Part shown: positions 1-64,000 of the stretch, piece after piece
Position numbering within the stretch: the stretch's first letter is position 1
Layout of the letters: the number at the start of each line of letters is the position of its first letter
IMG/VR virus record: IMGVR_UViG_3300021431_000126
Location: 520 to 64,519 of that record
Length of the DNA stretch: 64,000 nucleotides
Strand: one strand, 5' to 3'
Source of the DNA: a virus
Taxonomy: Duplodnaviria; Caudoviricetes
Position numbers and translations under genes: made by a program
The notes under the pieces: generated by a model
Databases searched by the model: none
Told to the model about the DNA's origin: nothing
What the model saw: the letters and a program-made list of their open reading frames with translations, nothing else

Positions 1-3
1 ATA

Positions 4-501
4 ATGAAAAATAATGATGAAATGAATTCATTATATGAAGTGCAGGCTGATGAAATTGAAAATGTTAATGATGATGTAAAAGATGTTATTGACAATTGTT
101 TCATCAAGTCTTGTAACTTAAATGGTATTTCAAAATGGGAAAAAATTTATAATTTGAAAAGCAATTCAGATTATACGCTAGAACAAAGAAAAGAATTATT
201 GATGAATAAATTGTATTTCAAACCACCTTTTACAAGACAAAGATTTATGGAAATTTTGGAGAATGTTTGGGGTGAGGGAAATTATACATTCATGTTATAT
301 CCTAACTTTGAATTGATTATAGATATTTATACCACTGACCCATTAATCTACTTAAAATTTCAAAAGTATGTTCGTGATGTTGTTCCTGCAAATATTTATT
401 TAATCTTTTCAGTTCAGTATACTTATCTATACTTAAACAGAAATTACACTTATAATAGACTTGAAAGTTTAACATATGGTGATTTAAGTCAATACGCATA
501 A
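4..501 (+). CDS. Baseplate wedge protein, XkdU/YmfQ (DUF2313)-like; probably 5'-truncated by the window edge
   Basis: EMNSLY...WEKIYNL...LEQRKELLMNKL...VVPAN pattern; lies before the tail fibre; baseplate J runs off the other end of the window. Confidence 0.75.
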   Translation: MKNNDEMNSLYEVQADEIENVNDDVKDVIDNCFIKSCNLNGISKWEKIYNLKSNSDYTLEQRKELLMNKLYFKPPFTRQRFMEILENVWGEGNYTFMLYPNFELIIDIYTTDPLIYLKFQKYVRDVVPANIYLIFSVQYTYLYLNRNYTYNRLESLTYGDLSQYA

Positions 502-514
502 TTGGGGGTATAAA

Positions 515-1501
515 ATGCAATACAGTACAAATTATAATATGAATAAGCCTGAAAGGTCAGACCAATACAATCTTGACCATTGGAATGAAAATACAGATAT
601 TATTGATACTGAATTAAAAAGAAATGCTGATAATATTTCTGATGAGGTAACAAGGGCAAGTAATGCTGAAAGTAAGGAATCAACAAGGGCAAGCAACGCT
701 GAAAGTGCCTTGCGGAATATTACTGATTCAACTTTCAAAACTGCACTTCTTAATTTTTGTTACCCAATTGGAAGTTTATATTGGACAAGTAAATCTACAA
801 ACCCTGCTCAACTTTTTGGTGGAACATGGACTCAAATTAAAGATAGGTTTATTTGGGCAAAAGGTGATAGTGATACTGTTAATGCAACGGGTGGTGCTAA
901 AACTGTAACCTTAACTGTTGAAAATTTACCATCACATAGTCATACAATCAACAGTGGAAACACTTCAAGTTCAGGAACAACAACGACCGCAGGTTTTAGA
1001 GGAATAGCCGTAACAAGTGGTGGAAGTTCGGCATCAAATACGGGTTCAGAATCAGGTCATACTCACAATATGGAACACTACCATGATAGAGGTACAATGG
1101 AAATTACGGGTACAACAACTGCTATTATATATGCAAGAAGTAATTATAATTCTAATAGTCCTACTGCAAGTGGTGCTTTTAATTTAACAGATGGTGCTGG
1201 GCCAACTGCCCGATATAAAAATCATGAAGATACGTGTTATGACCCAAAAACACTTAACATAAATGCGTCTGGTGGTTGGACAGGCAAAACATCAGGCTCA
1301 CTTGCAAACGCAACAACGGGAGATACAACTACTAAGACTTCAACGGGAGCGGGAACAAGCCATTCACATTCAATGGCACATACTCATAGTGTAACCGCTA
1401 GTGGTTATCTATATGGAAAGACTGATAATACGGGAAGTGGAACTGCCGTAAATAAAATGCCACCATATATTGTTAAATATTGTTGGGAAAGAACTGCATA
1501 A
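515..1501 (+). CDS. Tail fibre / baseplate-associated fibre protein (Ser/Thr/His-rich)
   Basis: YPIGSLYW..NPAQLFGGTW, GGAKTVTLTVENLPSHSH, repeated HTH/HSH motifs, C-terminal MPPYIVKYCWERTA typical of phage fibre collar families; follows XkdU. Confidence 0.8.
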   Translation: MQYSTNYNMNKPERSDQYNLDHWNENTDIIDTELKRNADNISDEVTRASNAESKESTRASNAESALRNITDSTFKTALLNFCYPIGSLYWTSKSTNPAQLFGGTWTQIKDRFIWAKGDSDTVNATGGAKTVTLTVENLPSHSHTINSGNTSSSGTTTTAGFRGIAVTSGGSSASNTGSESGHTHNMEHYHDRGTMEITGTTTAIIYARSNYNSNSPTASGAFNLTDGAGPTARYKNHEDTCYDPKTLNINASGGWTGKTSGSLANATTGDTTTKTSTGAGTSHSHSMAHTHSVTASGYLYGKTDNTGSGTAVNKMPPYIVKYCWERTA

Positions 1502-1518
1502 GATTTGGAGGAAAATAT

Positions 1519-1779
1519 ATGTTAATTAAAATTGAAAGAGCAGATGGTGAATTTGAAATCTATGAATCTAATAATTATAGAATCACTAAGATTAAAGATT
1601 TTCACCCATTAATTGTAAAAATTACAGTTTATGATAATGGTACAAAAATAAAAGTTGTAAAAAGACCATTTAAGTTTATTTACAAACATTTTATTTTTAA
1701 ATCAAAAAAAGTTCAGGATGAATTAAAAAACATCATTGAAAATCAGAATCAGGAAAAGGTGGTGAAAGATGAAAATTAA
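1519..1779 (+). CDS. Hypothetical protein
   Basis: GGAGG RBS before ATG 1519; sits between fibre and lysis genes. Confidence 0.55.
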   Translation: MLIKIERADGEFEIYESNNYRITKIKDFHPLIVKITVYDNGTKIKVVKRPFKFIYKHFIFKSKKVQDELKNIIENQNQEKVVKDEN

Positions 1780-2005
1780 AGATACATCTCACGTTGGAAT
1801 GGTAGTTGGTGCTATAAGTTTAATTATAACTTTTGCTGTAGTTATAATTAAATATATAGTTGCAGGAACTTGCCCATCAGTTGAAGAAGTAAAAGCACTC
1901 ATTCTCATAGGATGTGCACCTTCAATTCCATTCTGTCCTGTTTACATTTCAATATGGTTCGATAAAATTATTGAACTTAAAAATGGTAAAAAATCTGAAG
2001 AATGA
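1769..2005 (+). CDS. Small two-TM membrane protein, holin candidate
   Basis: Two hydrophobic segments and a charged C-terminus, directly upstream of the endolysin. Confidence 0.5.
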   Translation: MKIKDTSHVGMVVGAISLIITFAVVIIKYIVAGTCPSVEEVKALILIGCAPSIPFCPVYISIWFDKIIELKNGKKSEE

Positions 2006-2043
2006 TTATTTTATTATTTCAAATTATAGGATATACTTGAATT

Positions 2044-3209: not shown

Positions 3210-3347
3210 GGTAATTGGATATGAGTGTAAGGATTAAAACAATCAAGAAAATCTCACCAAAAGATAAAACTAAAATTAAAACAACTATCACTGACACTGT
3301 TTCTGCAAGGACTGAAAACAACAAATTGACTTATACTAGGAAAAGAA

Positions 3348-3584: not shown

Positions 3585-3586
3585 AA

Positions 3587-3617
3587 AATGACCTAGACTG
3601 TATTACAATCTAGGTCA
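3587..3617 (+). terminator. Hairpin between convergent operons
   Basis: tgacctaga...tctaggtca inverted repeat. Confidence 0.55.
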
Positions 3618-4464: not shown

Positions 4465-5188
4465 CTTTAGGTTTTAATTTCATATATTTTTCACGCAACA
4501 TGGCGTTGGTTCCAAGAAAATATCCTGCAACAAAACCGTCAAATTCACTTATGTTTGAATCTGTTTTCTCATTCATAAGACTTTTCCAAATGGTGAATAA
4601 TTCTGATATAACACCACCATTTTCAATTGTTCTAGGTTTGCTCAATAATGAATGCGGGTCAATAGTTTTCAATTTCAGCCTCAATTTATTATAGGATTGC
4701 AGGGCAGGAAATTCCCACCCTGCTAGGATCGTTACATGGTATAAAACTGTCTGATGTCAGTTGGTAGTTCTTTGAAATGACCTTTTGCGTCACGATGATT
4801 TTTGTCACCACCTGCAAGTTGTAGCCATTTTGTACCATCAGGAAGTTCAGCCCAGCAATACAAATTATATCCTAAATACATGCCCTTTTCTAGCAACATA
4901 TTTTCAATGAAATAAAACAACTTGTTATTCTGTTCAAGTGTTCCAACAGTCATAGACTTATTTGCCATGTCAACCACTTCTTTTACAGCCTTGGTCATTG
5001 CCCTTACTTTCACACTCATAATTTCACCTCACTTATAATTCAACTACGGATAAAACTTCAACATCAGCTGAAGATGTCCAATAATAAGAATCCAAAAATT
5101 CTTTTTTAGCATTTCTTTTACATGTAGCATATTTTTCATACTGCATTGTTGTTCCATTTATTTTGGCGATGATTAAAAACTTCTTCAT
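4442..5188 (-). other. Three small leftward early ORFs (4442-4684, 4732-5019, 5033-5188)
   Basis: Tandem ORFs with GAGG RBS downstream of the early promoter at about 5231-5259. Confidence 0.55.
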
Positions 5189-6973: not shown

Positions 6974-7291
6974 ATGGCTTGTAATTGCTGTAATTGTTCT
7001 AATTGTCCAAACTTGATACCTGTATCAAGTGTTACATCTAGCGGTGGAATAACAACAATCACCGTTCCAGCAGGAACAGTTTTTCAAAATGGAAGTTGTT
7101 ATTGCTTAGGATTATTCACCACGATTCCTGCAGGAACAAATGGAAGTCAGGTGAATGTAACTGACGGCACTAATTCATACACAATCTTCAATCGTGTTGC
7201 TAATTATTGGCGACCATGTTGTGGCTTAAGAAGTAGAACAATGCTGAAAGTTAAATTCTTAAATGACCCTGTTCACTTGTTAAAGGTATAA
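6974..7291 (+). CDS. Cys-rich beta-sandwich-like small protein
   Basis: MACNCCNCSNC, CYC, PCC; predicted beta-strand pattern. Confidence 0.75.
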   Translation: MACNCCNCSNCPNLIPVSSVTSSGGITTITVPAGTVFQNGSCYCLGLFTTIPAGTNGSQVNVTDGTNSYTIFNRVANYWRPCCGLRSRTMLKVKFLNDPVHLLKV

Positions 7292-13434: not shown

Positions 13435-14769
13435 ATGAGTTACGACATTAAAAAATTAAATGAAGTAAAATATTTCAAGCATAACCATATAATAATTCTA
13501 GCATACATGTGCCAATGGATTGCAGGAAAATATCAACCACTTCATCAAGAGTTTGATGGCAGAATGTATTATTGGTTTTCACTTCAGAAAATGGCTGAGG
13601 ATCTGTCCTTGTCATATCAACAGGTTCAACTTGCCTTGCGTAGATTAAAGAATCAAGATAAAAATGTTGATTATGTTACAGAGCCATTGGTGTATCAAAA
13701 AATTGATTATACTAATAATAGAATGTATCTTTCAGTTAATTTACCTGAGTTGAAAAATCTTATTGAATGCAAAAATGAATTGAAAGATTGCAGGATTAAA
13801 ATTGACACACTTCAGAAAAGAATTGGTGGAATGGGACTTTATACAAAGAGGATAGGAAAAATGGGAGCAGAAGCACTTTTTGATATTGAAAAACCTGCAT
13901 ATTGTGTTGAAGCAGACGCAATAGCAAAATTGATTTTGAGAAAATATCCTCAATATTTTTCTCATAGAATTCCTGATGAAAAATCATCTGCAACAAAAAC
14001 ATATGTTTCAATTTGTAGATCTATTGAGGATCTTTACAATGGCAGATTCATTCGTGAAAGAACTTTATGTGAAAACTTTTTGACTAATAAACAATTCAAT
14101 ATTGAGGGTTGGCAATCAAAAATTAAGGCTGTAAAGGGAGATTGGATCGCAGTCAAAAAATTGATTCTTGGTGCATTGAAGAATTTTGTTTTAATGCATG
14201 ATGAAGACAGAATGCCTTATAGTAAAGATTATTTACAGACCAATCTCAATCTTTGGTTTTATGATAATGTGTCGATTCAGGGTGAAGGTCAGTCACAATT
14301 TATTTTGTGCTTATTTGAGCCAGAATACACCAAAAAACACAATTCAGAAGTCAAGGCTGATAAAATCTTTGAAACACTTTCAAATACTGCTAAAAAGGGT
14401 GGAAATGAATTGTTTGAGATGAATACTTCAATGCCTGCTGGATTGTTTTGGGACAAGATAAAAGAAATGGTTGAATGGGGCAAGAGTGCTTTTGAGATTG
14501 AAGACAATATTCAATATTGGATTAGTAGTGCGAGTGAGTTGCCATCCAAGTTTGCAAGTTATTGCAGGGAAAATGACATCACTGTATCTCTAGCAACTGT
14601 TGATATAAAAAAGGCGGTAGAATCTAATGCCCCATGGACTTGGTTTGTAAAAGATGCCTGCATAAAACACGGATTGAATTCAAGCCTTGCAGAATGTGCA
14701 GATGAATCTGATATGATTGATTGTTATAAAAAATTAACATTTGATGATATGGAGTCAGTTGTTTTTTAA
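13435..14769 (+). CDS. Putative replication initiator (N-terminal wHTH)
   Basis: YYWFSLQKMAEDLSLSYQQVQLALRRL wHTH; first gene before MTase/DnaB; GAGGTG RBS before ATG 13435; AT-rich upstream region. Confidence 0.55.
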   Translation: MSYDIKKLNEVKYFKHNHIIILAYMCQWIAGKYQPLHQEFDGRMYYWFSLQKMAEDLSLSYQQVQLALRRLKNQDKNVDYVTEPLVYQKIDYTNNRMYLSVNLPELKNLIECKNELKDCRIKIDTLQKRIGGMGLYTKRIGKMGAEALFDIEKPAYCVEADAIAKLILRKYPQYFSHRIPDEKSSATKTYVSICRSIEDLYNGRFIRERTLCENFLTNKQFNIEGWQSKIKAVKGDWIAVKKLILGALKNFVLMHDEDRMPYSKDYLQTNLNLWFYDNVSIQGEGQSQFILCLFEPEYTKKHNSEVKADKIFETLSNTAKKGGNELFEMNTSMPAGLFWDKIKEMVEWGKSAFEIEDNIQYWISSASELPSKFASYCRENDITVSLATVDIKKAVESNAPWTWFVKDACIKHGLNSSLAECADESDMIDCYKKLTFDDMESVVF

Positions 14770-14779
14770 GAGGTTAAAA

Positions 14780-15489
14780 ATGATTAAATTATATAATCAG
14801 AATTGTAGGGAAATAATAAAAGATGTAAAACCTGAAAAATGTATTATTGTAACAGATCCGCCCTTTAATGTTGGTTATCATTATAATTCTTATAACGATA
14901 ATATGCCTGAAAAAGAATATTATGAAATGCTTGATGAAGTTTTACAAGGCAATTTTATAATCATTCATTATCCTGAAGAAATTTATAAATTTGCAATACA
15001 TAAAGGAATAGCACCACAAAAAGTTATATCTTGGGTGTATAATTCAAATACAGGAAAACAACACAGAGATATTGCATTTTTTAATATCAAACCTGATATG
15101 TCAAAAGTGCGACAGCCTTATAAAAATTTGACAGATAAAAGAATTATTGAAAGAATGAAATCAGATGTGGGGGGGCAAAACTTTATGATTGGTGGAACAT
15201 TAATCAAGTTAAAAATGTGAATAAAGAAAAAACAGAACATCCATGTCAAATGCCTCTTGAGGTAATGAAAAATATTATAGGCATTCTGCCTGAGGATTAT
15301 ACAATATTGGATCCATTTATGGGTAGTGGTACAACAGGTGTTGCCTGCAAATTATTGGGTAGGGATTTTATTGGAATTGAACTTGATAAAAAATATTTTA
15401 AGATTGCAGAACAAAGAATAAATAATGGATTTGTTCAAAAAGATGTTACTGATGAAAAATTAAGTTCATTGCCTTTATTCCTAGAATAA
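14780..15489 (+). pseudogene. Beta-class N4-C/N6-A DNA methyltransferase split by a frameshift at a G7 tract (15169-15175)
   Basis: VTDPPF in the 5' frame; AKLYDWWNINQVKN..HPCQMP..ILDPFMGSGTTG in the -1 frame. Confidence 0.85.
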
Positions 15490-22294: not shown

Positions 22295-22909
22295 ATGTTT
22301 TATATTTATGAAATTAAGAATCTGTTGAACAATAAAACCTATATTGGACAACGCAAGTGTCCTGCAAATAAGATTCCTGAAACAGATTCATACATAGGCA
22401 GTGGTAAAATTCTTCATCAAGCGTATGAAAAATATGACAAAAAGAATTTCACCAAAACAATTCTTGCTATTGCAGGAACAAAAGAAGTCATTGATGTTCT
22501 TGAAAAGGTTTTCATTCAACTTTATAGGGAACAAGGCAAGGCTGAATATAATATAACTGGTGGAGGTAGTGGTGGAAGTTTTAAGGGAATAAATAAGGGC
22601 AGAAAAGTTTCAGAAGAAACAAAAAGAAAATTGCGGAAAGCAAATGTTGGAAAACATCTTTCAGAGGAAACCAAAAGAAAAATACAAGAAAAACTTTTGA
22701 AAAATCCAAATAGAAAAGGTGTTGAAATTTCATTAGAAACACGTGAAAGAATGAGACAATCTCATTTGGGCAAAAAGCGTTCAAAAGAATCTATTGAGAA
22801 TCAAAGAAAAGCACAAATGGGTAGAGTTGTTTCAGCAGAAACACGTGAGAAAATTAGAATTTCAAATTTGCGTACAAAACATAAAATTCATTTGGAGGAA
22901 TTGAAATGA
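22295..22909 (+). CDS. GIY-YIG homing endonuclease with NUMOD3 repeats (no. 1)
   Basis: YIYEI..KTYIGQR, YNITGGG, SEETKRK repeats. Confidence 0.88.
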   Translation: MFYIYEIKNLLNNKTYIGQRKCPANKIPETDSYIGSGKILHQAYEKYDKKNFTKTILAIAGTKEVIDVLEKVFIQLYREQGKAEYNITGGGSGGSFKGINKGRKVSEETKRKLRKANVGKHLSEETKRKIQEKLLKNPNRKGVEISLETRERMRQSHLGKKRSKESIENQRKAQMGRVVSAETREKIRISNLRTKHKIHLEELK

Positions 22910-25714: not shown

Positions 25715-26107
25715 ATGTACATAAAAGATGTTGTGAATAAATGTAAAGAGCGTGGATATGAAATCACTAAAATGGGCTTGTACAAGGCTGGTGAAAAATA
25801 TGGTTTTATATCTAAAGTTGATGGCAAGCATTCATTGGAATTTGATAAGGATAAATTCTTGAAATGGCTTGATAAAGCAACTGAGGAAATTCCTGCAGGT
25901 TGGTTGAGCGTCAGACAACTTTCTGAAAAATTGGGAATCAGTGTTGCTCAGGTTTATATTCTTATTAAAGATGAAGATTCAGGTGCTAGGTCAATTGGTA
26001 GTGGTGTAGGAGTGTTATATGCTGACCCAAAAAGAATTGAAGCAATTATCAAAAAGCGTGAAGACAGCCATAAGGAAAAGTGGGGTGATGAAAATGGAAC
26101 AAATTAG
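25715..26107 (+). CDS. Tandem HTH DNA-binding protein
   Basis: WLSVRQLSEKLGISVAQVYILIK excisionase-like HTH plus an N-terminal HTH-like unit. Confidence 0.65.
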   Translation: MYIKDVVNKCKERGYEITKMGLYKAGEKYGFISKVDGKHSLEFDKDKFLKWLDKATEEIPAGWLSVRQLSEKLGISVAQVYILIKDEDSGARSIGSGVGVLYADPKRIEAIIKKREDSHKEKWGDENGTN

Positions 26108-27317
26108 ATTCATGACAGGTGCTCAGTTGCTTGACCTTGTAATTGGTGGAGCAAAAGGTGTATTTGGAATTCCTGCAGGTAGATTCATCAATATTGTTGG
26201 TGACAAGTCTGCGGGAAAAACTTTTTTGAGCAATGAAATTATTGCTAGTGCTTATCATAAATTCGGTTCAAAAAAGTTCAAATGGGTTTATGATGACTGT
26301 GAAAGTGGATATTCATTTGATACAGAATCGCTTTATGGATTTGAGATTATGCCTGAGGATGATGAGAAAAGAGTTCATTCAAAAACAGTTGAAGATGCAT
26401 TCTGTAATATTTCAGATTTTTGCTCAAAATTGAAAGAGGGTCAATTTGGAATCTATGTTTTGGATTCGCTTGACGGATTAACCTCAGATGAACAAGATGA
26501 ACAGGCTGAAGAGAGATTGAAAGCATTCCACAACAAAAAGGAATATGACAAAGGCTCATATAACATGGGCAAACCTAGATATTTGAGCAGGGAATTTTTT
26601 CCTCAACTTTGTTCAACCATTGAAGATAAGAATGTTCTTGTAATCATCATTTCACAAGTTCGAGAAAATATTGATATGTTCAGTTTTGAAAAGTTCTCAC
26701 GCTCAGGCGGTAAGGCAATGGACTTCTATGCTCATTCAGTTATTTGGTTGGCAACTGCAAAATACATTGAGCGAAAAGGTAGCAAGGTGGGTGTTGTAGT
26801 AAAAGCCAAGACAACAAAGAGCAAAACACCAAGACCTTTCAGAGAATGTTTTTTCAACTTCTTGTATGATTATGGACTTGATGATATTGGTTCAAATGTT
26901 GATTATCTTTTTGACCTGCGAACAGACAAAGGTGAACTCAATTCAAAAGCAAAGGCAATTCAGTGGGATGGTAATGCAGGAAAATTGACACTGACGGATC
27001 TGAAAAAATTCTTGGATGAATATGATTTGCAGGAAAAATTTGAAGACAGCCGATATTATGACGGTAAACCAACTGCTGATGACATCTTTGATTTTGTTCA
27101 GAGCAAAAAAGAGTACAAGGAAAAGTTTGCGGAAAAATTCGGTGAATCAATGACTAGGGATGAACTCATTGAATGGATTGAAGAAAACAATTTGGAAGAT
27201 GAGTTGAGACAGCGAGTTATTGATAAATGGGAAGAGTATGAAGACAGCATAAAGTCTTCACGAAAGAAAAAATATGGAACTATTCCAAAGACAACAGACA
27301 AGGTTGTAATGGAGTAG
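26088..27317 (+). CDS. RecA/UvsX-like recombinase
   Basis: GDKSAGKT, YVLDSL, ISQVRE, SGGKAMDFYA. Confidence 0.9.
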   Translation: MKMEQIRFMTGAQLLDLVIGGAKGVFGIPAGRFINIVGDKSAGKTFLSNEIIASAYHKFGSKKFKWVYDDCESGYSFDTESLYGFEIMPEDDEKRVHSKTVEDAFCNISDFCSKLKEGQFGIYVLDSLDGLTSDEQDEQAEERLKAFHNKKEYDKGSYNMGKPRYLSREFFPQLCSTIEDKNVLVIIISQVRENIDMFSFEKFSRSGGKAMDFYAHSVIWLATAKYIERKGSKVGVVVKAKTTKSKTPRPFRECFFNFLYDYGLDDIGSNVDYLFDLRTDKGELNSKAKAIQWDGNAGKLTLTDLKKFLDEYDLQEKFEDSRYYDGKPTADDIFDFVQSKKEYKEKFAEKFGESMTRDELIEWIEENNLEDELRQRVIDKWEEYEDSIKSSRKKKYGTIPKTTDKVVME

Positions 27318-28869: not shown

Positions 28870-28927
28870 TTTTGAGGCAGGTGAAAATCCTGCCTTTTTT
28901 AATCCTATAATAAATTGAGGTTGAAAT

Positions 28928-30139
28928 ATGATTAAAAGCATAGAACTGAAAAACATACAATCTCACGAAAATACAAAGATTGAACTTGATAAGGGAATCA
29001 ATTGTATTGTGGGAAGTAGTAACAATGGAAAATCGGCAATTTTAAGAGGGTTATATTGGGCAAGATACAATAGACCTTTGGGTGTAGATACACTTTGCTC
29101 ACACTGGGCACTCAATAAAAAGGGTGAACTGACTGATGAAATGTCAGTAACAATTGAGAATGAAAATGGAGTTGTTTGCAGGAAAAGAACAAAGGCTGAT
29201 AATCAGTACATAGTCAATGGTGAAGTTCTTAATGTTGTCAAGACAGATGTTCCTGCAGAGGTTGAGCAGATCCTTAAATTATCTGATACAAATGTTCAGA
29301 GACAACTTGATGCTCCATTCTTATTATCACAAACAAGCGGTGAGGTGGCCAAATACTTCAATCACGTTGTCCGCTTGGATATTATCGACAGAGTGCTTAC
29401 AAATGCTGAATCTTCAAGACGTAGAACAAAGGCTGATATTGAATCAACTGAAAAGATAATCAAAGAGCAGGAAAAGAAAAAGGAAAAATATGATTGGTTG
29501 GATTCTGTTGAGAAGTTATTACAGAAGTGGGACACTGTAAAAGAAAATAATGACCAATTAAGATCCCAATCTGAAAACCTGCAATCTGAATTGGAATCTT
29601 TTGAAGAAAATAAACAGAAAGTGGCTAAATATGTAAATATAGTGGCTCAAAAAGATAAATTGGAAACTATTTCAACATTGATTAAAAAGTCATCAGAAAT
29701 TGAAGATTTGTGTGGAAGTTTGGCCAATTCTTTGGAAATGTATAAACGGCATTCAGAAAAGATTGAAAAATTGAATAAGGTTATACAGCTGAAGAAGTTG
29801 ATTGAAGATGTTATGAAAGCAGATGGATCCAGTGCAGGATTGAGAATGAAAATTGCTGAATTGACTTTCAATCTTGATAAATTTAAGGCGGTGAAAATCT
29901 ATCCTGATTTTTCAGAACAGAAAAGGCTGATTGAAAAGATCGAAAAGTTGAATGAAAATAACCTGCAGGAAAAGGTGGATGAATTGAGTGAATCTATTCA
30001 AAATTACAATATTCAAAAAATGCATATTGAGGATTCAGCAAATGATATAAAATGCCTACAGGAACAATTGCCTGACGTTTGTCCAATTTGTGGTAGTCCA
30101 ATGAAAAATGGGATTTGTAAAAAAGAGGTGAAAAAATGA
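28928..30139 (+). CDS. SbcC/Rad50 N-terminal half (Walker A, coiled coil, Zn hook)
   Basis: LKNIQSH, GSSNNGKS, QRQLD Q-loop, terminal CPICG. Confidence 0.85.
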   Translation: MIKSIELKNIQSHENTKIELDKGINCIVGSSNNGKSAILRGLYWARYNRPLGVDTLCSHWALNKKGELTDEMSVTIENENGVVCRKRTKADNQYIVNGEVLNVVKTDVPAEVEQILKLSDTNVQRQLDAPFLLSQTSGEVAKYFNHVVRLDIIDRVLTNAESSRRRTKADIESTEKIIKEQEKKKEKYDWLDSVEKLLQKWDTVKENNDQLRSQSENLQSELESFEENKQKVAKYVNIVAQKDKLETISTLIKKSSEIEDLCGSLANSLEMYKRHSEKIEKLNKVIQLKKLIEDVMKADGSSAGLRMKIAELTFNLDKFKAVKIYPDFSEQKRLIEKIEKLNENNLQEKVDELSESIQNYNIQKMHIEDSANDIKCLQEQLPDVCPICGSPMKNGICKKEVKK

Positions 30140-30750
30140 TATTTTACATTTATGAAATTAAGAATCTGTTGAACAATAAAACCTATATTGGTCAACGCAA
30201 ATGTCCTGCAAATAAGATTCCTGAAACAGATTCATATATGGGCTCAGGTGATTTGATTAGAAAAGCAATTAAAAAATATGGTTTGCAGAATTTTTCAAAA
30301 TCAATTCTTGAATCAAATATTGGTTCTAAAAAAGAAGTTGATAAAAGAGAAATTTATTGGATTTCAAAATATAAAGAACAAGGTGGTGCTGAGTATAATT
30401 TATCAACTGGTGGCACAGGCGGAAATTTGGGTGAATATGTAAATAAACTGATTAAAAAATCTAAAGAAAATATTTCAGAAGAAACTAGACGAAAAATGAG
30501 TGAATCTGCTAAAAAGAAAATTTTTACAGAAGAACATAGAAGAAATATTGGAATTTCTGCTATGGGAAATAGGTCAAGAAAAGGTCAACATATTTCAGAA
30601 GAACAAAAGAAAAAACAAAGTGAAGCATTAAGAGGTAAAAATTTTACAATTGAACATAAGAAAAAAATTAGTGATGCTTTGAAAGGTCATAAAGGTTTTT
30701 TGGCTGGAAAGCATTGGAAAATTGTTGATGGAAAAAGAATTATATATTGA
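30136..30750 (+). CDS. GIY-YIG homing endonuclease with NUMOD3 repeats (no. 3)
   Basis: Same N-terminus as 22295; YNLSTGG; SEETRRKMSES. Confidence 0.88.
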   Translation: MIFYIYEIKNLLNNKTYIGQRKCPANKIPETDSYMGSGDLIRKAIKKYGLQNFSKSILESNIGSKKEVDKREIYWISKYKEQGGAEYNLSTGGTGGNLGEYVNKLIKKSKENISEETRRKMSESAKKKIFTEEHRRNIGISAMGNRSRKGQHISEEQKKKQSEALRGKNFTIEHKKKISDALKGHKGFLAGKHWKIVDGKRIIY

Positions 30751-30758
30751 GGTTTTTT

Positions 30759-31643
30759 ATGAAATATTTTAAAGGAATTATAACAGCCGATTGGCATTTG
30801 TCTCAGACAAAACCTAGAGCAAGGTGTGATGAAGATTGGATTAAAACTCAAAGTGAACTTGTTAATCAAGTTTACGAAAAGGCAGTTGAAAAAGATTGCG
30901 ACATATTTATAGTTGGTGATATTTTTCATTCCAATTCTGATGTATCTTTTGAAGTTATCAGCATTGTTCAAAATCTTGCTAAAAAATTAAAAATTAAAGG
31001 TTTGAAACTTTATATAATTTGCGGGAATCACGATTTATTATATCATTCAAGTTCAAATTTGAATAAGTCTGCGGTGGGTGTTCTTTTGCATTCTGAAAAT
31101 ATTTATCCTGTTACAAAATATTCAGAAGATGTTTCAGGTGCTAATTTTGATGAAGAAACAGCGAATAAAAGAATTGTATTCAAGCATGTTCTTGCATTTG
31201 CAGATGAATCAAAGATTCCACCTCATGTTGAAGCAATTACGGCTCAGGAATTGTTAGATGAATATGATGAGGCAAAATTTATTTTTTTGGGAGATAATCA
31301 TCATTCATTTATTTATGAAAATAAGGGCAGAAAAGTTATCAATTCAGGTTGTTTGATTCGTAGGAACAGTGATTTCAAATCATATGTTCCTATAATATAT
31401 TATGTGGATGAGGAAAATGATATTTGTGAATCATTTGAAATCATCGACAATGAGCAACTTATTGATGACAGTTATATCCTGCAGGAAAATGAACGTGAAG
31501 AGAGAATTGACAATTTTGTTCAGAAATTAAAAGACACAGAAAGTGTTTCACTTGATTTTTTAGCAAATGTTGAAAATGCCCTGCAGAGTAATAATTTGGA
31601 TTCAGAATTGAAAAAGGTTGTTGAGGAATTGTTGGAGGTATAA
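30759..31643 (+). CDS. SbcD/Mre11-like metallophosphoesterase nuclease
   Basis: ADWH, VGDIF, GNHD, GDNH, NSG. Confidence 0.9.
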   Translation: MKYFKGIITADWHLSQTKPRARCDEDWIKTQSELVNQVYEKAVEKDCDIFIVGDIFHSNSDVSFEVISIVQNLAKKLKIKGLKLYIICGNHDLLYHSSSNLNKSAVGVLLHSENIYPVTKYSEDVSGANFDEETANKRIVFKHVLAFADESKIPPHVEAITAQELLDEYDEAKFIFLGDNHHSFIYENKGRKVINSGCLIRRNSDFKSYVPIIYYVDEENDICESFEIIDNEQLIDDSYILQENEREERIDNFVQKLKDTESVSLDFLANVENALQSNNLDSELKKVVEELLEV

Positions 31644-34944: not shown

Positions 34945-35848
34945 ATGAATTTTGAGAAAATGTTCAAAGATTATCACATTGAGTATTCTACCAAAGTGAA
35001 TAGGGGGTGGGTTTAACGTTGAGTGTCCTTATTGTACATCTGAACATCCAATGCATTTGGGGTTTAATCCTGCGGGTGGTTATTGTACTTGTTGGAATTG
35101 CGGTGGCCATGACTTGAAACGCACCTTGTCAAAGGTTTTGGCTGTTCCTTATAATGATGTAGATGAAATTATGACCCATTATGAGGGCAGAGGTGGAATG
35201 CTGATGCAACTCAATAAAAAGGTTGCCAAAGCAAAACATCTTGAACTTCCAAATGATGGATTCATACCTGCTGAAAGAAAATATCTTTTGGGCAGAAACT
35301 TCTCACCAAGATTCCTGCACGAAAAATATGGAGTGGTTGGCGGTGGAATTGCGGGCAGATGGAAGTTCAGAATTCTCATTCCAGTGTACTTAAATGGAAA
35401 ATTGGTGAGTTGGACAGGCAGAAGTATTTTGGACAAGCAGACCTTAAAAGAAAAGGAAATTCCAAGATACAAAAACCTGTCTATTGAAGAATCTGTCATA
35501 AATATTAAAGAGTGTATTTTCAATATAGACCATTGCAGGAAAAATGTTGCGGTGCTTGTAGAGGGTTCATTTGATGTTATGAGATTGGGTGACGATTTTA
35601 TGTGTAGCATGGGTACAGAACTGACTCAGAATCAAATTGGCATTCTTCATCAGCGGTTCAAAAAGATCTTTATTGCTTTTGATAATGAGCCTGAAGCACA
35701 GAAAAAAGCACGCAAATTTGGACTGCAACTTGCCTCAATTGGAGTTGAGGTTGAAGTTGTAAATATTTATGAAGATTTTAACAAAAATGATGGGGGTGAA
35801 TTATCTGATAATGAAGTGAAGATTATTCGCAAAGAACTTGGGTTGTAG
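34945..35848 (+). CDS. DnaG-like primase (Zn finger + TOPRIM) needing a +1 frameshift at 35011-35017
   Basis: Frame 0: MNFEKMFKDYHIEYSTKVNRGWV-stop; +1 frame: NVECPYC..H..CWNCG...VEGSFDV...AFDNE. Confidence 0.8.
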
Positions 35849-35898: not shown

Positions 35899-36183
35899 AT
35901 GGATGATTTTGATGAATTATTTATGGAAATGCAGGGTGAGGAAAAGCCTGAAGAATTTCCAAATTTGCCTGCTGAGTTGCAGGGAAAAGATCTGACACCA
36001 GATGAGACAGAAAAGTTGAAAAATGACTTTCCAACTTTGCGTGATTATATCACAATCTCATTCAATCGTGAGCAGACAAAAGAACTTGCAGAACTGTTGG
36101 GTGTTCCAATGCTTGATCCAAAGAAAAAGAACACATATACATTTGATGAATTGAAAGGAATGAAGACATATGGATTATTATAG
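35899..36183 (+). CDS. Acidic hypothetical protein, first gene of the modification cluster
   Basis: Follows an AATCCTATAATAAA promoter; overlaps the radical SAM start. Confidence 0.65.
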   Translation: MDDFDELFMEMQGEEKPEEFPNLPAELQGKDLTPDETEKLKNDFPTLRDYITISFNREQTKELAELLGVPMLDPKKKNTYTFDELKGMKTYGLL

Positions 36184-37435
36184 TTCACCAAGATGGACTG
36201 CTGAAATTGCAGATTGTTCCATGCCAATGACAATGGATACATATTCAAATTGTTCTTATAAATGTCAGTATTGTTTCAGTCAGTTCCAGCGTGGAATTGG
36301 AGATGGAAAAGACGCTTATTTGGCAAATGAGGTCAAATGGGTAAATCCTGAGAAGTTCAAAAAGATCTTCACTGAGCCTGACAAGAGTCAGTTTGGTCAG
36401 TATGTAAAAGCACGCAAGGCAATGCAGTGGGGTGGACTTTCTGACCAGTTCGATGAGAATGAAAGAAAATATGGAAAAACACTTGAGTTGTTACGTTGGA
36501 TGAGAAAAAACGTGCCTGACATGCCAATTTCATTTTCAACTAAAGCAACTTGGTGGCTTGATGACCCTAGATATGTAGAGTTGTTCAAGGACAATCCGCT
36601 GTGGAATTGTAAATTTTCAATTATCACTTTGGATGAAGAAAAGGCAAGAATCATTGAGGCTGGAGTTGATTCACCAAAGAAAAGACTTGAAGCAATCGAG
36701 AAGTATGCCAAGTTGAATGCAGGCGGTGCGACATTAAGATTGCGACCGTTCATTATTGGAATTACTACACCAACATACCTTGATTTGATCCGTGAAGCAG
36801 GAAATAGAGGTGCGACAGCATTGAGCACAGAATTCTTCTGCGTTGAAAGACGTTCAAATTTGTTGAAAGAAAAATTCCACTTTTTCAATGAACTCTGCGG
36901 ATTTGATTTGTATAAGTTCTATGAAAAATATTCAGTTCAGCAGGGTTATATGCGACTGAACAGAAAAATTAAAGAGCCATTTGTCAAGAATATGAAAGAG
37001 GAATGTGAAAAAATTGGTATGAGATTCTATGTCTCAGACGCACATTTCAAAGAATGTTCCTGCAACGGCTCATGCTGTGGATTGCCTGAAACTTGGAATT
37101 ATTCAAGAGGGCAGTGGTGTCAGGCTTTAATGTTAGCAAAGAAAAATGGCAAAGTAACTTATTCAGAAGTCAAGGGTGACATTGATAAGTATTTGTCAGG
37201 ATTCCAGCGACAAAGGGCAGAGGGATTCAACAAGGGTGGAGCAAGCACAAGGGCAAAGTTCAGCGGTATGTCTATGGCTGACTATATGCGTTGGTTGTGG
37301 AATAATCCAAACAATGGACAATCACCTTATACTCTTTTTGAGGGTGTCTTGTATCCTGTGGGCAATGATGCAAATGGCGACTTGATATATGAATATCAGG
37401 AAAACAGAACATTTGTGCCGATTGAAAATAAATAG
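36170..37435 (+). CDS. Radical SAM protein (spore-photoproduct-lyase-like fold) with extra C-terminal Cys cluster
   Basis: CSYKCQYC (CxxxCxxC), STK, LRLRPFI, CSCNGSCCG. Confidence 0.88.
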   Translation: MDYYSSPRWTAEIADCSMPMTMDTYSNCSYKCQYCFSQFQRGIGDGKDAYLANEVKWVNPEKFKKIFTEPDKSQFGQYVKARKAMQWGGLSDQFDENERKYGKTLELLRWMRKNVPDMPISFSTKATWWLDDPRYVELFKDNPLWNCKFSIITLDEEKARIIEAGVDSPKKRLEAIEKYAKLNAGGATLRLRPFIIGITTPTYLDLIREAGNRGATALSTEFFCVERRSNLLKEKFHFFNELCGFDLYKFYEKYSVQQGYMRLNRKIKEPFVKNMKEECEKIGMRFYVSDAHFKECSCNGSCCGLPETWNYSRGQWCQALMLAKKNGKVTYSEVKGDIDKYLSGFQRQRAEGFNKGGASTRAKFSGMSMADYMRWLWNNPNNGQSPYTLFEGVLYPVGNDANGDLIYEYQENRTFVPIENK

Positions 37436-37489
37436 TTGAATCTATCCTGCAACTTTAATTAGTTGCAGGATTTTTTATTGAGGATTAAA

Positions 37490-38431
37490 ATGGACAGAAT
37501 CAAAGATTTTATTTTATTTCATAACAAGTCTTGTACGGCAGATTCCATTGTTTTGCCGTTGAAAAAATATTGTGAATTGAAAGGATATTCAAAAAAAGAA
37601 TTGGAGCAGGTGAACATATTTTATGCCCTGACCTATTGCACAGCCTCAACTATTATCTTAATGAATAAACTTGATGAGTTGAAAAAGAATCCTGACGACT
37701 TTTGGAAAAACAACAAAAATACACTGTTATTTCAGTCAGACAGAAAATATGTCAAGATGAATGATATGTTTGTTTCTGCGTGGCAGGATTTTGCGGAAAA
37801 GCACATATTTGAGCAATTAGATAAGCAAGATGTAATAGATGTTGAGCAGGCAATTAAGATAGTGCAGGGTGTAAAATACTTTGGCAGATTCTCAGCATTT
37901 TTATTCCTAGAATGTTATTGCTGTCTTTTTGATAAAGCCTGCAAGAATAATAAATTGGATTGGCAAAATGGAAATACAGTTACATCAGGAATGTTCAATG
38001 TCTTGGGTGAAGATGAAAAAGCGAATTTGTGGGACAAAGAACATAAATTGAAGATTGATTCTGAATTGTTTGATAAATATGCAAATGATTTTTTGGAGCA
38101 GGCTGAAATTGGAAAAGAGTTGGCGGTGCTAGAAACTAATCTTTGCGCATATAGAAAATTATTCAAAAAATCAAGATACATTGGATATTATTCAGACAGG
38201 GTGCTTGAAGAATCTCATAAAGTTTTCAACAATTATCCCGCATATAAAAGCGAGTTGGAATTGCTTTTCAAGGCAAGGGAAATGGTGATTGCCCCAGAGT
38301 TTTTGGGTGAAAAAAATGGTTGGAATGGAATCAGACCTGAATTGAAAAAATTCTATCTTCAGACTGGTAGTTGGGATTGGACAAAACAAGTTGAGATTCC
38401 TATAATAAATGCAGGATTGTTTGAGGTGTAA
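37490..38431 (+). CDS. Amino acid:DNA transferase-like (aGPT-PPlase2/ADDT, HhH-glycosylase fold)
   Basis: FQSDRKY, FGRFSAFLFLE, ETNLCAYRKLFK.SRYIGYYSDR match my recollection of the family. Confidence 0.7.
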   Translation: MDRIKDFILFHNKSCTADSIVLPLKKYCELKGYSKKELEQVNIFYALTYCTASTIILMNKLDELKKNPDDFWKNNKNTLLFQSDRKYVKMNDMFVSAWQDFAEKHIFEQLDKQDVIDVEQAIKIVQGVKYFGRFSAFLFLECYCCLFDKACKNNKLDWQNGNTVTSGMFNVLGEDEKANLWDKEHKLKIDSELFDKYANDFLEQAEIGKELAVLETNLCAYRKLFKKSRYIGYYSDRVLEESHKVFNNYPAYKSELELLFKAREMVIAPEFLGEKNGWNGIRPELKKFYLQTGSWDWTKQVEIPIINAGLFEV

Positions 38432-38433
38432 AA

Positions 38434-39027
38434 ATGAAAAAATTGATAGCAATTTACGGAATAAACGGTGCAGGAAAAACAAGCCTTGTAAAGAATCTTT
38501 TAATGTCAGATTTTGTAGCAGAATCTGATGGTGATTTTCTTTTTGATTGTTTTGACTTCTTTGAAAAGCAATCTCAATACGGAACATACACTGTTTCAAA
38601 GGGTGGGAACTATGTTGCTGTTGGTGGATATTCTAACAAGTGCGGTGGGGCAGATACAATAAAAAGTGTAGACAATTATTTTGGTATGATTAATTATTTG
38701 TCTGAAAATTATCCTAATGCTTCACTTTGCGTTGAGGGTGTACTACAAAAAGCAATTGACGACTTAATCAATTGTTATGAGGATTTACAGAAAAAAGGTT
38801 ATGAGCCTTGCTTGGTCAAATTGGAAACATCTTTGGAGCAGGCAGTGGAGCGTGTAAAGAATCGCAATGGGCAAATGCCTGATGTAGAATGTATCAGAAC
38901 AAAGGTGTTGAACACAGGTAGACTTTTTAAAAAGTTGCAGGATTGCGGAAAGTTCAATTGCTATGTAATTGATACGGATAATAAAACGGCAGAGCAGGTG
39001 TATGAGGAATTTAAAAAAATAATCTAA
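38434..39027 (+). CDS. P-loop nucleotide/DNA kinase
   Basis: GINGAGKT Walker A, CGGAD, VEG, ERVKNR lid. Confidence 0.8.
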   Translation: MKKLIAIYGINGAGKTSLVKNLLMSDFVAESDGDFLFDCFDFFEKQSQYGTYTVSKGGNYVAVGGYSNKCGGADTIKSVDNYFGMINYLSENYPNASLCVEGVLQKAIDDLINCYEDLQKKGYEPCLVKLETSLEQAVERVKNRNGQMPDVECIRTKVLNTGRLFKKLQDCGKFNCYVIDTDNKTAEQVYEEFKKII

Positions 39028-39111: not shown

Positions 39112-39773
39112 ATGGAAAACTTAATTGGTATGATTCATTCACAGAATGACGGTGATTACAAACTTGTTTCAATAAAGCCTTTTGAAGATGATTTGGTGAA
39201 TATGAAACGAGTTGCTGAAGAGTCAGGTAAATATCCCGCATACTTCTTTTTCAGAAAAATCTTGAAGAGTGGAAAAGAATCCAAGCAGGGTTTTGTTGCT
39301 TTGATGTTTAAGGAAAGCAAAAATATTGTAAAACTATAAAAATTAAGGTTTTGCAGGATTCCTTAAAAATCCTGCAAGGTGGGAAAAATGACAAGATACG
39401 AAAAGTTGATGAGTCAAAGTGATGAGTGTTGTAGAAAAGCAATTCAGTATGCAAAAAAGCAGGATTGGTACATGGCAACATTTTACAAGAATGCTAGCAA
39501 TGATTTTAAGGCTAGAGCAAGGAATTTAAAAATTCTAGTTAATGATGAGGCATACTTATGAAATTGAAAAGAAGTAATTTGATTATGCTTATTATCACGC
39601 TGATAATTGCTGTGATTGCCTTGTCCTGTCTTTATTTTAATAGGAGCAAACAAATGGATGAAGTAACAAAATACATTTTATGTTCTTGGGGATTGTTTAT
39701 GTTGATTATTCTCCCATTAGGTGAAGGCTTGGTGTTGCTGATTGATTGGGTTTTTCAGAAATTTAATAAATAA
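39112..39773 (+). other. Three small early ORFs (39112-39339, 39379-39561, 39558-39773 two-TM)
   Basis: Tandem ORFs with RBSs. Confidence 0.55.
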
Positions 39774-43048: not shown

Positions 43049-43099
43049 ATAAAATCTTCAAAGTGTGTTTTGCAGGGCAGAAATGTCCTGCTTTTTTTA

Positions 43100-43880: not shown

Positions 43881-44007
43881 TTTGCTTGTTGTTCCTATAA
43901 TAAAACAGATGGAGCAACCTTGTCCGTATGGACTGGAAAATGTTTTGTTTAGGAATCAAAATGCGGTTATTCCCTCCCACCCAACTGCAAATTGATTCCT
44001 GTTTTAT

Positions 44008-44078
44008 TCTGAATTGGTGTAAAGGTAGCACAATTGCTTTTGATGCAATTTGTCGTGGTTCGATTCCATGATTCAGAG
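44008..44078 (+). tRNA. tRNA-Gln (anticodon TTG), no encoded CCA
   Basis: Acceptor TCTGAAT/ATTCAGA, D arm GTG/CAC, anticodon stem ATTGC/GCAAT with loop TT-TTG-AT, T arm CGTGG-TTCGATT-CCATG. Confidence 0.88.
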
Positions 44079-44142
44079 TAGCACCGTATGGTGTGATAAT
44101 TTAGCGGTTCACCTGCTAAAATGGTGAAATAGCACAATTGAG

Positions 44143-60209: not shown

Positions 60210-60215
60210 AGAGGA

Positions 60216-62395: not shown

Positions 62396-62892
62396 ACGAT
62401 TCTACAATGAACAGATTTGTTCGTGTTATGAAAGATATTGCGAACACTTCCAACAAACCAGATACAATGATTTTTGGTGAGGTAAAAGCACTTGACCCTA
62501 TTGAGATTGATATTGGAAACAATATTATTCTCACAGAAGAATTTTTATTTTTGGGTCAAATGTGTAGACCTCATAAAGTGAAAATTCCACATACCCATAA
62601 ATACAGTGGGTCAACTGAAAATGGAACAACTGGAATTTCAGCTGTAACAACTGCAACTATTGGAGCCACTCCAACTGTTGGTACAGTTACAATAACTGAT
62701 AAAGGACATACACATGACATCAAAGAGCAGGAAACTGATGATGTTCATAAACAAGGTTGCGGAACTGATTATGAAGATTTTGTAACAATTGAAATAGAGC
62801 CAAAATTAAAGGTTGGTGATAAAGTTCTGATGTTTGCTTTTAACAATTATCAGATGTATTATGTTGCTGAAAGAATTGAAAGAGAGGATTAA
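62392..62892 (+). CDS. XkdR-like (DUF2577) spike protein
   Basis: FGEV...P..I, His-rich HTH/HTHD, LKVGDKVL. Confidence 0.8.
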   Translation: MNDSTMNRFVRVMKDIANTSNKPDTMIFGEVKALDPIEIDIGNNIILTEEFLFLGQMCRPHKVKIPHTHKYSGSTENGTTGISAVTTATIGATPTVGTVTITDKGHTHDIKEQETDDVHKQGCGTDYEDFVTIEIEPKLKVGDKVLMFAFNNYQMYYVAERIERED

Positions 62893-62893
62893 A

Positions 62894-63298
62894 ATGACAC
62901 CACAAATTACAGAAACTGCGGGCAATGAAGTTTATTCTTACAGACAACCCAATTTGACTTATAGATTGGGTGAAAAAACTGTTGCAGGGAAAATTGACAA
63001 ATTAGAATCTATCAAACAGGCTGTCTTTCATATATTATCAACTGAGAGATATTCAACACCAATTTATGATGAAAATTATGGGATTGAACTTGCTCAATAT
63101 ATTGGACAAGATTTGGGATTTATAGTGGCAAATATTGAAAACACTTTACGTGAGGCACTTTGCCAAGATGACCGCATAACTGATGTTCAAGTTACTAATG
63201 TTGAAAAAAGTTCTCAGCAGAGCAATGCTTGTCTAGTAGAATTTACTGTGTTTACAATATATGGTAATTATAACGATTCTTTGAATGTTTCATTATAA
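62894..63298 (+). CDS. XkdS-like (DUF2634) baseplate wedge
   Basis: IKQAV..ILSTERY...IY..NYGIEL, EAL.QDDRI, TIYG. Confidence 0.88.
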   Translation: MTPQITETAGNEVYSYRQPNLTYRLGEKTVAGKIDKLESIKQAVFHILSTERYSTPIYDENYGIELAQYIGQDLGFIVANIENTLREALCQDDRITDVQVTNVEKSSQQSNACLVEFTVFTIYGNYNDSLNVSL

Positions 63299-63313
63299 TT
63301 TTGGAGGTATAAA

Positions 63314-64000
63314 ATGTCATATAGTGAAAATAATACTTTTGAAAAAATTTTGGATAGGTGTCTAGCAAATGATGTCCTTGTAAATGTAGACAAGCGAGTT
63401 GGCTCAATTATATATGATGCCCTTGCCCCAGTTTGTCTTGAATTGGCTGAGGCTTATGTTAAAATGGACATTCTTGAAGAACAAACTTATTTGATGACTG
63501 CAACAGGAAGCAATTTGGATAAACGTGTTTATGATTATGGAATCACAAGACAAGAGGCAACTCAGGCTTTGCGTATTGCAGAATTTAAATGCTATCAAAC
63601 TGATGACCAAGGTGGAATTGTTTATGATGAAAATAATCAGCCTATCCTTATTGATATGGAAATTCCAGAGGGTAGCAGATTTGCAGTGCCTGAAGATGAA
63701 GATGTTACTTTTGAATATGTAGGAAAAACAGATGGTTATAAAATCCTGCAATGTGAACAAACAGGTACAAAAGGAAATGAGCACGTGGGAACTATCTTGC
63801 CGTTGGTTCCAATAAATGGCTTAATTGAGGCAAATATAATTTCAACTTACAAACCCGCAGAGGATGCAGAAACTGATGAAGAATTAAGATTGAGAACAAA
63901 AAATCATTTAAATTATCTTTCATTTGGTGGCAATATTTCTGATTATATTGAAAAAGTAAACACACTTGATGGTGTTGGAAATGTTAAGGTGTTTCCTGCT
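63314..64000 (+). CDS. Baseplate J (XkdT-like), runs off the window
   Basis: DKRVGSIIYDALAP, TATGSNLD, CEQTGTKGN, AETDEELR.R, GGNISDY. Confidence 0.92.
   Translation, partial: MSYSENNTFEKILDRCLANDVLVNVDKRVGSIIYDALAPVCLELAEAYVKMDILEEQTYLMTATGSNLDKRVYDYGITRQEATQALRIAEFKCYQTDDQGGIVYDENNQPILIDMEIPEGSRFAVPEDEDVTFEYVGKTDGYKILQCEQTGTKGNEHVGTILPLVPINGLIEANIISTYKPAEDAETDEELRLRTKNHLNYLSFGGNISDYIEKVNTLDGVGNVKVFPA

Follow-up and report, generated by a model that had tools for sequence, protein, structure and literature searches.

Several kinds of short words are known to recur throughout genomes or to be purged from them. HIP1 (GCGATCGC) and other cyanobacterial iterated palindromes are spread genome-wide, leave their mark on coding choices and on amino acid usage, and their reader is debated. 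AGTACT in jumbo phages and ACAGCTGT in temperate phages are palindromes as well; they are specific to lineages, withstand codon-based null models, are evenly spaced and reach a 10- to 50-fold excess. Chi is strongly over-represented in some lambdoid phages, in which its copies cluster in the stretch from the replication origin to the packaging site, and lambdoid phages carrying their own recombination genes select against it (PMC3784561). Avoidance of restriction sites is likewise known from virulent phages (survey in PMC6286503). Here we describe the asymmetric hexamer TGCAGG and its complement CCTGCA in the genome of an uncultured virus of the Caudoviricetes (IMG/VR record IMGVR_UViG_3300021431_000126, positions 520 to 64,519), where the word exceeds the number explained by protein sequence and codon usage and is spaced with unusual regularity. 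The window, i.e. the whole stretch of DNA that was analyzed, comprises 64.0 kb of this 64.5-kb single-contig record, for which CheckV gives a completeness of 99%. In the following, window counts refer to the 64.0 kb and genome counts to the full record. Genes are open reading frame-based calls made in this analysis, the phage under study is designated G000, and its relatives are designated G001 to G005.

Exact counting yielded 95 copies of TGCAGG and 68 copies of CCTGCA in the window. These 163 copies occupy 155 distinct places, with 8 overlapping pairs forming the palindrome CCTGCAGG, in agreement with the about 155–160 copies that a first-pass annotation of the sequence had counted by hand. 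The same annotation had assumed about 32% G+C and about 10 expected copies; the measured G+C content is 34.0%, and base composition predicts 11.6 copies. By the ratio of observed counts to this expectation, CCTGCA ranked first and TGCAGG third among all hexamers. Per-frame counts agree with the earlier statement that the word occurs in different codon phases, in both orientations and between genes: sense TGCAGG was distributed 8/41/41 and sense CCTGCA 38/7/14 over the phases, the two poor phases being those that force Cys, and 14 copies are intergenic. The eight coordinates reported for CCTGCAGG (7127..7134, and positions 20761, 25892, 26172, 29962, 31478, 40688 and 58208) proved exact, but whereas about 0.1 copies had been quoted as the expectation, an order-4 model built from pentamers predicts 11 against 8 seen, and CCTGCAGG is not enriched beyond its halves.

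Variants of the TGCGG type, also described as frequent, are indeed abundant. TGCGG occurs 62 times and CCGCA 26 times, which is 2.4–2.5 times the number in synonymous shuffles. When all hexamers were ranked for enrichment on both strands of genes, TGCAGG/CCTGCA came first (observed/expected 90/41 and 59/20) and TGCGGG/CCCGCA second (22/4.7 and 9/1.3); of the other one-mismatch neighbours none was enriched and several were depleted. The window from position 1 to 64,000 thus forms a field of 190 TGCRGG/CCYGCA sites (95 TGCAGG and 68 CCTGCA plus TGCGGG/CCCGCA) with a mean spacing of about 340 bp. Extended by its flanks, the consensus reads T-TGCRGG-A-W, with a preceding T in 107 and a following A in 92 of the 163 copies, the A being succeeded by A or T. 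Beyond positions −1 and +2 the information content of the flanks is about zero, which makes it a word and not a dispersed repeat element of the REP/MITE-like kind. Like HIP1 and its relatives, the word is distributed genome-wide, affects coding choices and amino acid usage, and remains in excess once protein sequence and codon usage are controlled for, with copies seen in all reading phases. Unlike HIP1, which is a palindrome of cellular genomes, TGCAGG is asymmetric, its palindromic fusion is not favoured, and its carrier is a phage lineage. With AGTACT and ACAGCTGT it shares specificity for a lineage, resistance to codon-based nulls and even spacing; it differs from them by its asymmetry and by an excess of 1.5- to 2.3-fold.

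The latter figure was derived from null models of increasing stringency. Markov simulations of orders 1 to 3 produced 25, 42 and 51 copies (50.6 ± 7.2 at order 3) against 165 in the genome. Within genes, where 149 copies were observed, permutation of codons gave 29.8 ± 5.2 copies and within-gene synonymous shuffles gave 61.3 ± 6.7 copies, the highest value among 300 shuffles being 81. Shuffles that additionally keep one neighbouring base yielded 85–108 copies, while those keeping both neighbouring bases within genes leave too little freedom to be informative. Disappearance of the excess under amino acid- and codon-preserving shuffles had been named beforehand as the outcome that would speak against the word; the excess persisted (149 vs. 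61). Protein sequence and codon usage nevertheless account for about 40% of the genic copies, and the initial impression of an approximately 15-fold enrichment was overstated, with more than 40% of copies following from these two sources.

In a further set of nulls, synonymous codons were swapped in Monte Carlo runs, while depleted words were kept from exceeding the counts seen in the genome. Holding 91 palindromic or restriction-type words together with CG and Shine-Dalgarno-like words resulted in 41.5 plus 21–24 expected copies against 89 plus 58 observed. When all words depleted at z ≤ −3.5 or −3.0 were held (226–352 words), 82–99 copies were expected; these lists take in neighbours of the motif itself, which renders this null very conservative. 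Purging of other words accounts for at most a further 15–25% of the copies, and the specific excess left after the nulls is 1.5- to 2.3-fold. A fair expectation is therefore 61 copies, or up to 82–99, and all nulls keep the protein sequences fixed, so that protein-level causes are not separable in these figures. As a caution for similar work, a 14-fold enrichment over base composition shrank to about 2-fold once protein sequence, codons and forbidden words were modelled.

The word has left a trace in the proteins. Among dipeptides of the proteome, Pro-Ala was most over-represented (2.1-fold), followed by Ala-Gly (1.7-fold), Asp-Glu and, in fourth position, Leu-Gln (1.7-fold). Pro-Ala, Ala-Gly and Leu-Gln are encoded by CCT-GCA, GCA-GGN and TTG-CAG, respectively, and the reversed pairs are not enriched. 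CCT-GCA encodes 59% of the Pro-Ala pairs (23% expected) and TTG-CAG 40% of the Leu-Gln pairs (18% expected). In the relative G003, which is free of GCAGG, Pro-Ala and Ala-Gly are at expectation and Leu-Gln is still about 1.5-fold over-represented; in a host-like bacterial sample all three pairs are near expectation. The excess of the word thus reaches into the proteome, whose four most over-represented dipeptides include the three that it encodes.

The copies are also distributed with unusual regularity. Averaged over bin offsets, the variance/mean ratio of the counts was 0.57, 0.47 and 0.40 for bins of 1, 2 and 3 kb, respectively (P ≤ 0.001), and at the 1-kb and 2-kb scales this ratio was the lowest among 208 abundant hexamers. 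Of the 325 positions that are synonymously able to carry the word 148 are realized, and these are more even than random subsets (0.66 vs. 1.02 ± 0.13 at 1 kb and 0.46 vs. 0.90 ± 0.16 at 2 kb). Since forward and reverse copies compensate each other weakly (r = −0.13 to −0.20), the regularity belongs mostly to the two orientations taken together. Forward sites alone were slightly more even than after random relabelling (P = 0.04), and the spacing per strand is 540–820 nt.

The abundance of TGCAGG stands beside a purge of other words. Almost every short G+C-containing palindrome has been removed in G000 and its near relatives, as seen from the observed/expected counts of GCNGC (1/54), CCNGG (1/54), GGNCC (5/54), AGCT (12/203), CCGG (0/54), CGCG (0/54), TCGA (32/203) and GATC (55/203; 0/206 in G001), and of hexamers such as AAGCTT and AGTACT (0/22 each), many others being purged too. 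TGCA is the only G+C-holding 4-bp palindrome left free (356/203). The purge is visible in the proteins: Ala-Ala (1/58), Pro-Gly (1/29), Gly-Pro (5/29) and Asp-Gln (14/42) are depleted, matching the losses of GCNGC, CCNGG, GGNCC and GATC. The more distant G005 retains GCNGC (221/156). Some bans are relaxed in G000 in comparison to its relatives, namely those of GATC (55 vs. 0–1), GGCC (16 vs. 0–1), GCGC (18 vs. 0–1) and AGATCT (11 vs. 0). G000 also has the N-terminal half of a methyltransferase (14741–15220), which is missing from the relatives; the methyltransferase may shield some of these sites. In line with the restriction-site avoidance described for virulent phages, G000 has one of the deepest purges, the abundance of the motif tracks the depth of the purge, and GCAGG itself is forbidden in the sister lineage G003. 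Unlike avoidance, which explains depletion, the present case includes an enrichment that a constraint on palindromes alone fails to reproduce.

Could the word be a passive by-product of this purge? According to such an explanation, the purge, which takes in palindromes, CG, Shine-Dalgarno-like words and several asymmetric words of the restriction type, funnels the codons GCA for Ala, GGN for Gly, CCT for Pro, CAG for Gln and TTG for Leu into the junctions still allowed, i.e. T-GCA-GG, CCT-GCA and TTG-CAG-G. TGCAGG/CCTGCA would then stand out simply as the most frequent of the G+C-rich words that are still safe, without any factor reading it. We regard this as a serious, albeit improbable, alternative. 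It fits with the removal of G+C palindromes other than TGCA, with the rise of the expectation from 61 to 82–99 copies when 226–352 depleted words are held, and with a comparison of 21 family loci, in which observed/expected TGCAGG tracked how deeply restriction sites had been purged (Spearman −0.86). However, the constraint on palindromic, restriction-type, CG and Shine-Dalgarno-like words leaves about 64 of 147 observed copies explained, and the longer word lists hold neighbours of the motif that are perhaps depleted through the favouring of the motif itself. Moreover, a funnel predicts neither the even spacing among possible sites (P < 0.001) nor the R degeneracy nor the excess of Pro-Ala and Ala-Gly. 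Replacement of Ala-Ala was considered as a source of the latter two dipeptides and abandoned, as positions aligned with Ala-Ala of G005 revealed no such trend in a small sample.

Intergenic hairpins built from the motif had been noticed before. All six that were named fold, with −8 to −17 kcal/mol and stems of GCAGG/CCTGC, and three are followed by a U-run. A hairpin GCAGGG...CCCTGC at 4699..4723 starts within a TGCAGG copy (−14.2 kcal/mol). Terminator-like hairpins succeeded by U-runs are located at 28874..28902 (stems GGCAGG/CCTGCC; −13.2 kcal/mol, z −3.5) and at 43072..43098 (GCAGGGCA...TGTCCTGC; −13.8 kcal/mol, z −4.1). At 37444..37477, 3' of the radical-SAM gene, a perfect 11-bp inverted repeat (ATCCTGCAACT...AGTTGCAGGAT) precedes a U-run (−17.2 kcal/mol, z −7.0), and the inverted repeat TTGCAGGATT...AATCCTGCAA at 39349..39379 (−13.7 kcal/mol) lies directly upstream of a ribosome-binding site; all five are on the plus strand. 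The use of GCAGG/CCTGC in terminator stems is again in keeping with the passive explanation, given that GGCC, GCGC, CCGG and CGCG are banned.

The word was then followed in related phages, as had been proposed. No close relative was found in the phage collection searched; the relatives, at 45–87% protein identity, are uncultured contigs from IMG/VR. Figures for them are observed/expected over synonymous shuffles, for sense and then antisense. The excess is common to G001 (67,002 bp, complete with a 127-bp terminal repeat; GCAGG 142/72 and 65/28), G002 (40 kb; TGCAGG 33/18 and 20/8) and the nearest relative, G004 (22.6 kb; 14/8 and 7/3), and is absent from the more distant G005 (46% G+C) and from G003 (31.9 kb; L058+L059, IMGVR_UViG_3300028048_000315). 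Among the 158 loci compared, G000 has the highest density, and close relatives range from 0 to 2.6 copies per kb. The positions of the word turn over: 25 of 110 aligned sites of G000 are kept in G001. Where the amino acids are conserved, 50–71% of sites are retained as compared to 37–56% for control hexamers. G001 has its own bans (ACAGG 14 vs. 80 expected, CTGCAG 0 vs. 11, GATC 0/206).

In G003, GCAGG is missing (0 vs. 19 expected), as is ACAGG, and CCAGG is reduced to 2 vs. about 8. Overall, RCAGG occurs 0 times with 58 expected, and T precedes 152 of the 154 copies of CAGG. This ban suggests a host system that reads an asymmetric word such as RCAGG/CCTGY. G003 also has an excess of TTCAGG (49 copies), which is mostly a consequence of the RCAGG ban, the constrained null giving 38–45; this is a further point in favour of a passive origin of such words. 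A switch of the motif from TGCAGG to TTCAGG in G003 was considered and downgraded, since the constrained null covers most of the excess and orthologous replacements were found at only 6 of 68 sites.

The word could, in principle, simply mirror an oligonucleotide or codon-pair bias of the host. The nearest relatives of the terminase in bacterial assemblies are a weak lead in this respect, four of them being located in Treponema bins and one each in a Bacteroidales and a Clostridia bin. The family contigs L065, L066, L068 and L069, whose terminases are 62–71% identical, sit in four different Treponema genome bins, and the members binned there do not purge GCNGC (26–48 copies, 15–20 expected). 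The CHAP endolysin, searched in the ESM Atlas as a clue to the host, matched viral clusters only. Treponema as host thus rests on the binning of related contigs and may not be the true host; the family is a candidate only. In 151 Treponemataceae genomes the 8-mer TTGCAGGA is present at 0.02–0.28 copies per kb as compared to 0.96 per kb in the phage. By estimate from the counts, this is still about 5–10 times above base composition, and a 106-kb sample of a Treponema bin is mildly enriched for the word (TGCAGG 71/46 sense, CCTGCA 30/24 antisense) and favours the same codons GCA, CAG, GGA and CCT. However, the 1.25- to 1.5-fold excess over synonymous shuffles in this sample compares with 2.2- to 2.9-fold in the phage, and even the densest of the family genomes falls far short of the phage (0.28 vs. 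0.96 per kb), whose close relatives moreover span 0 to 2.6 per kb. A mere reflection of host bias, which had also been named beforehand as an outcome against the word, is therefore hardly credible for this candidate family. Nor does the word qualify as a DNA uptake sequence, which would be abundant in a naturally competent host; densities in the candidate family are 3- to 40-fold lower, and the carrier is a virulent-type phage.

Taken together, survival of the excess under synonymous shuffles and the far lower densities in the candidate host family support a signal at the DNA level. On balance, we lean slightly towards the view that the word is selected as DNA and read by some factor. T-TGCRGG-A would be kept in the lineage of G000 by selection at a high and unusually even density, with a site every 340 bp or so, whichever its orientation; its reading by a sequence-specific factor is what we infer. 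Besides the excess itself, the specificity for TGCRGG, the even placement and the over-represented dipeptides speak for this view, as do, within the family, the top density of G000, the correlation with the depth of the purge and the somewhat better retention of sites at conserved amino acids. Several observations weigh against this view. The most conservative null cuts the excess to 1.5-fold, and other G+C-rich words are similarly enriched on one strand (GGTGCT 38/12, GAGGGT 34/8). Evenness was seen in G000 and not in G001 and G002 (variance/mean about 1.15). The family loci used for the correlation with the purge are phylogenetically non-independent, and the G+C content correlates with the excess as well (rho −0.64). 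Finally, no reader was identified among the phage candidates considered.

Modification enzymes of the phage were among these candidates. The genome encodes an N6/N4 DNA methyltransferase in two reading frames (14741..15489, plus strand) that overlap, the catalytic half spanning 14741–15220 and the SAM-binding half 15217–15489, as well as a PAPS-reductase-like protein and a block of radical-SAM, ADDT-like and P-loop kinase genes of the thymidine hypermodification type (35899..39027, plus strand). If the word were the target of one of these activities, even spacing could provide blanket protection. All three kinds of genes are present, and GCAGG is listed in a table as recognition site of an adenine methylase family (PMC6471742). 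The ban of GCAGG in G003 (0/19) further implies that enzymes reading the word exist in the ecosystem. A methylase site of this kind would fit the ban in G003 and gives no reason for the enrichment in G000; a restriction or modification target would be depleted, or modified at all copies, in exposed phages, and the word is depleted in G003 but enriched in G000. Protection requires that restriction sites be modified, not that targets be added. In the complete G001 the excess of GCAGG is retained (142/72 and 65/28) although the hypermodification block is missing, and the hypermodification target proposed by the first-pass annotation was rejected on this ground. Its methyltransferase variant fared no better as the gene is split and its N-terminal half is unique to G000, without an orthologue in the other motif-rich genomes (G001 to G005 compared), while four relatives share the excess. 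We therefore consider a modification target very unlikely, and neither the methyltransferase as writer nor the hypermodification block as user of the motif is supported.

A Chi-like signal is our leading guess for the mechanism, although by itself we judge it unlikely. Cuts made by restriction enzymes feed RecBCD, and Chi attenuates RecBCD. In such a scenario, a double-strand end, e.g. one left by restriction enzymes, would soon meet a correctly oriented copy, and the copy would switch a host helicase-nuclease of the RecBCD/AddAB type from degradation to recombinational rescue. We rank this guess first because Chi represents a known class of short, asymmetric, G-rich words that are read on one strand, and because it would explain the coupling to restriction pressure, since RecBCD/AddAB goes on to destroy DNA cut by restriction enzymes if it meets no Chi. 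Like Chi, TGCAGG is over-represented, occurs in genes in every usable phase, varies among lineages and has a plausible tie to the survival of restriction-made DNA ends. Unlike Chi, it is spread evenly and has no strand polarity: in G000, and likewise in the terminal-repeat genome G001, each octant contains both orientations. With one site per 340 bp it is, to our knowledge, about ten times denser than any known Chi. On the host side, the 8-mer had no replichore polarity in the one complete Treponemataceae genome tested (G030). The phage also encodes a UvsX/RecA-like recombinase (26019..27317, plus strand; phrog_97, 9e-38) and an SbcC-like exonuclease with a phosphoesterase (SbcCD or gp46-47-like; 28928..31643, plus strand), split by a GIY-YIG endonuclease gene. 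Having a recombination system of its own, the phage is less likely to depend on the Chi pathway of a host. The earlier suggestion of a Chi-like signal serving an SbcCD/RecA system is conceivable, but the lack of strand polarity and the phage's own recombinase lend it no support.

A different reader could be the DnaG/TOPRIM-type primase encoded at 35051..35848 (plus strand; phrog_47, 7e-29), orthologues of which are present in G001 and G002 (62–79% identity). E. coli DnaG starts on d(CTG) with pppAG primers, and bacterial and phage primases use defined triplets (PMC2978363); the T7 primase needs flanking context as well (PMC12839067). The template CCYGCA holds 5'-CYG-3'. If the 3' G remained uncopied and Y templated the first purine, primers would read pppRGG(A), and regularly placed sites could set the spacing of Okazaki fragments. 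It agrees with this idea that a DnaB-like helicase accompanies the primase and that the core CAGGA is common to G000–G004, preceded by G or T, and by T only in G003. The only tolerated variation (R) falls on the predicted initiating purine, which is a formal fit only. The spacing of 540–820 nt per strand and the slight evenness of forward sites alone (P = 0.04) point in the same direction. As with the known sites of E. coli (d(CTG)) and T7 ((G/T)2GTC), the word would be an asymmetric site read on single-stranded DNA, with a purine start and a need for about one copy per kilobase on each strand (PMC2978363, PMC12839067). Unlike it, the known sites are 3–5 nt long and not known to be selected genome-wide. 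CAG/CTG triplets are plentiful in any case, enrichment of the CAGG core is slight on the sense strand (270/235) and lacking in G003 (94/95), and the evenness resides mainly in the union of orientations rather than in each strand. A role in priming would also leave the link to the depth of the purge unexplained, and we know of no genome that selects extended primase sites. For these reasons we view priming sites as quite doubtful, if less so than a modification target.

Apart from the genes mentioned, the window carries those for the head, portal and large terminase, which are SPP1-like, and for a PBSX-like baseplate. Its replication genes comprise a family-A polymerase, a clamp, a clamp loader and a ligase in addition to the DnaB-like helicase, the DnaG-type primase, the UvsX-like recombinase and the SbcCD-like pair. 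Three GIY-YIG homing endonuclease-like genes are located at 22295–22909, 28174–28869 and 30136–30750, one of which separates the SbcC-like and phosphoesterase genes; the stretch 30136–31643 shares 98% protein identity with G002, which suggests a recent exchange. The sole tRNA gene (44007–44079) specifies a tRNA-Gln with anticodon TTG that reads CAA, and CAG, the codon within the motif, makes up 49% of the Gln codons despite 34% G+C. Shine-Dalgarno-like words are nearly missing within genes (AGGAG 2 vs. 58 expected, GAAGGA 2 vs. 27), probably reflecting a host with strong Shine-Dalgarno-led initiation. Besides TGCA, CAATTG is in excess (60/22), and GAWTC is present in 606 copies, both strands being enriched over synonymous shuffles (GAATC 143/88, GATTC 130/68), in contrast to GACTC and GAGTC, which are not enriched (22 each).

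In its most specific form, our proposal is that a clade of uncultured gut or rumen phages uses the asymmetric 7–8-nt word T-TGCRGG-A, or TTCAGGA where a host bans GCAGG, as an evenly spaced signal under selection that is strong enough to affect the proteins. A tracking machine would read the signal on both strands, acting either as a Chi-like tamer of the host helicase-nuclease alongside extreme restriction avoidance or as the primase of the phage. We put it forward tentatively, as possible rather than probable. If the word is indeed read by a factor, it would constitute a rare non-palindromic genome-wide signal in a phage, one that alters the usage of amino acid pairs and is coupled to one of the deepest purges of restriction sites seen. 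It would then provide a handle on how phages survive those double-strand breaks that escape site avoidance, or on how a replisome chooses its priming sites.

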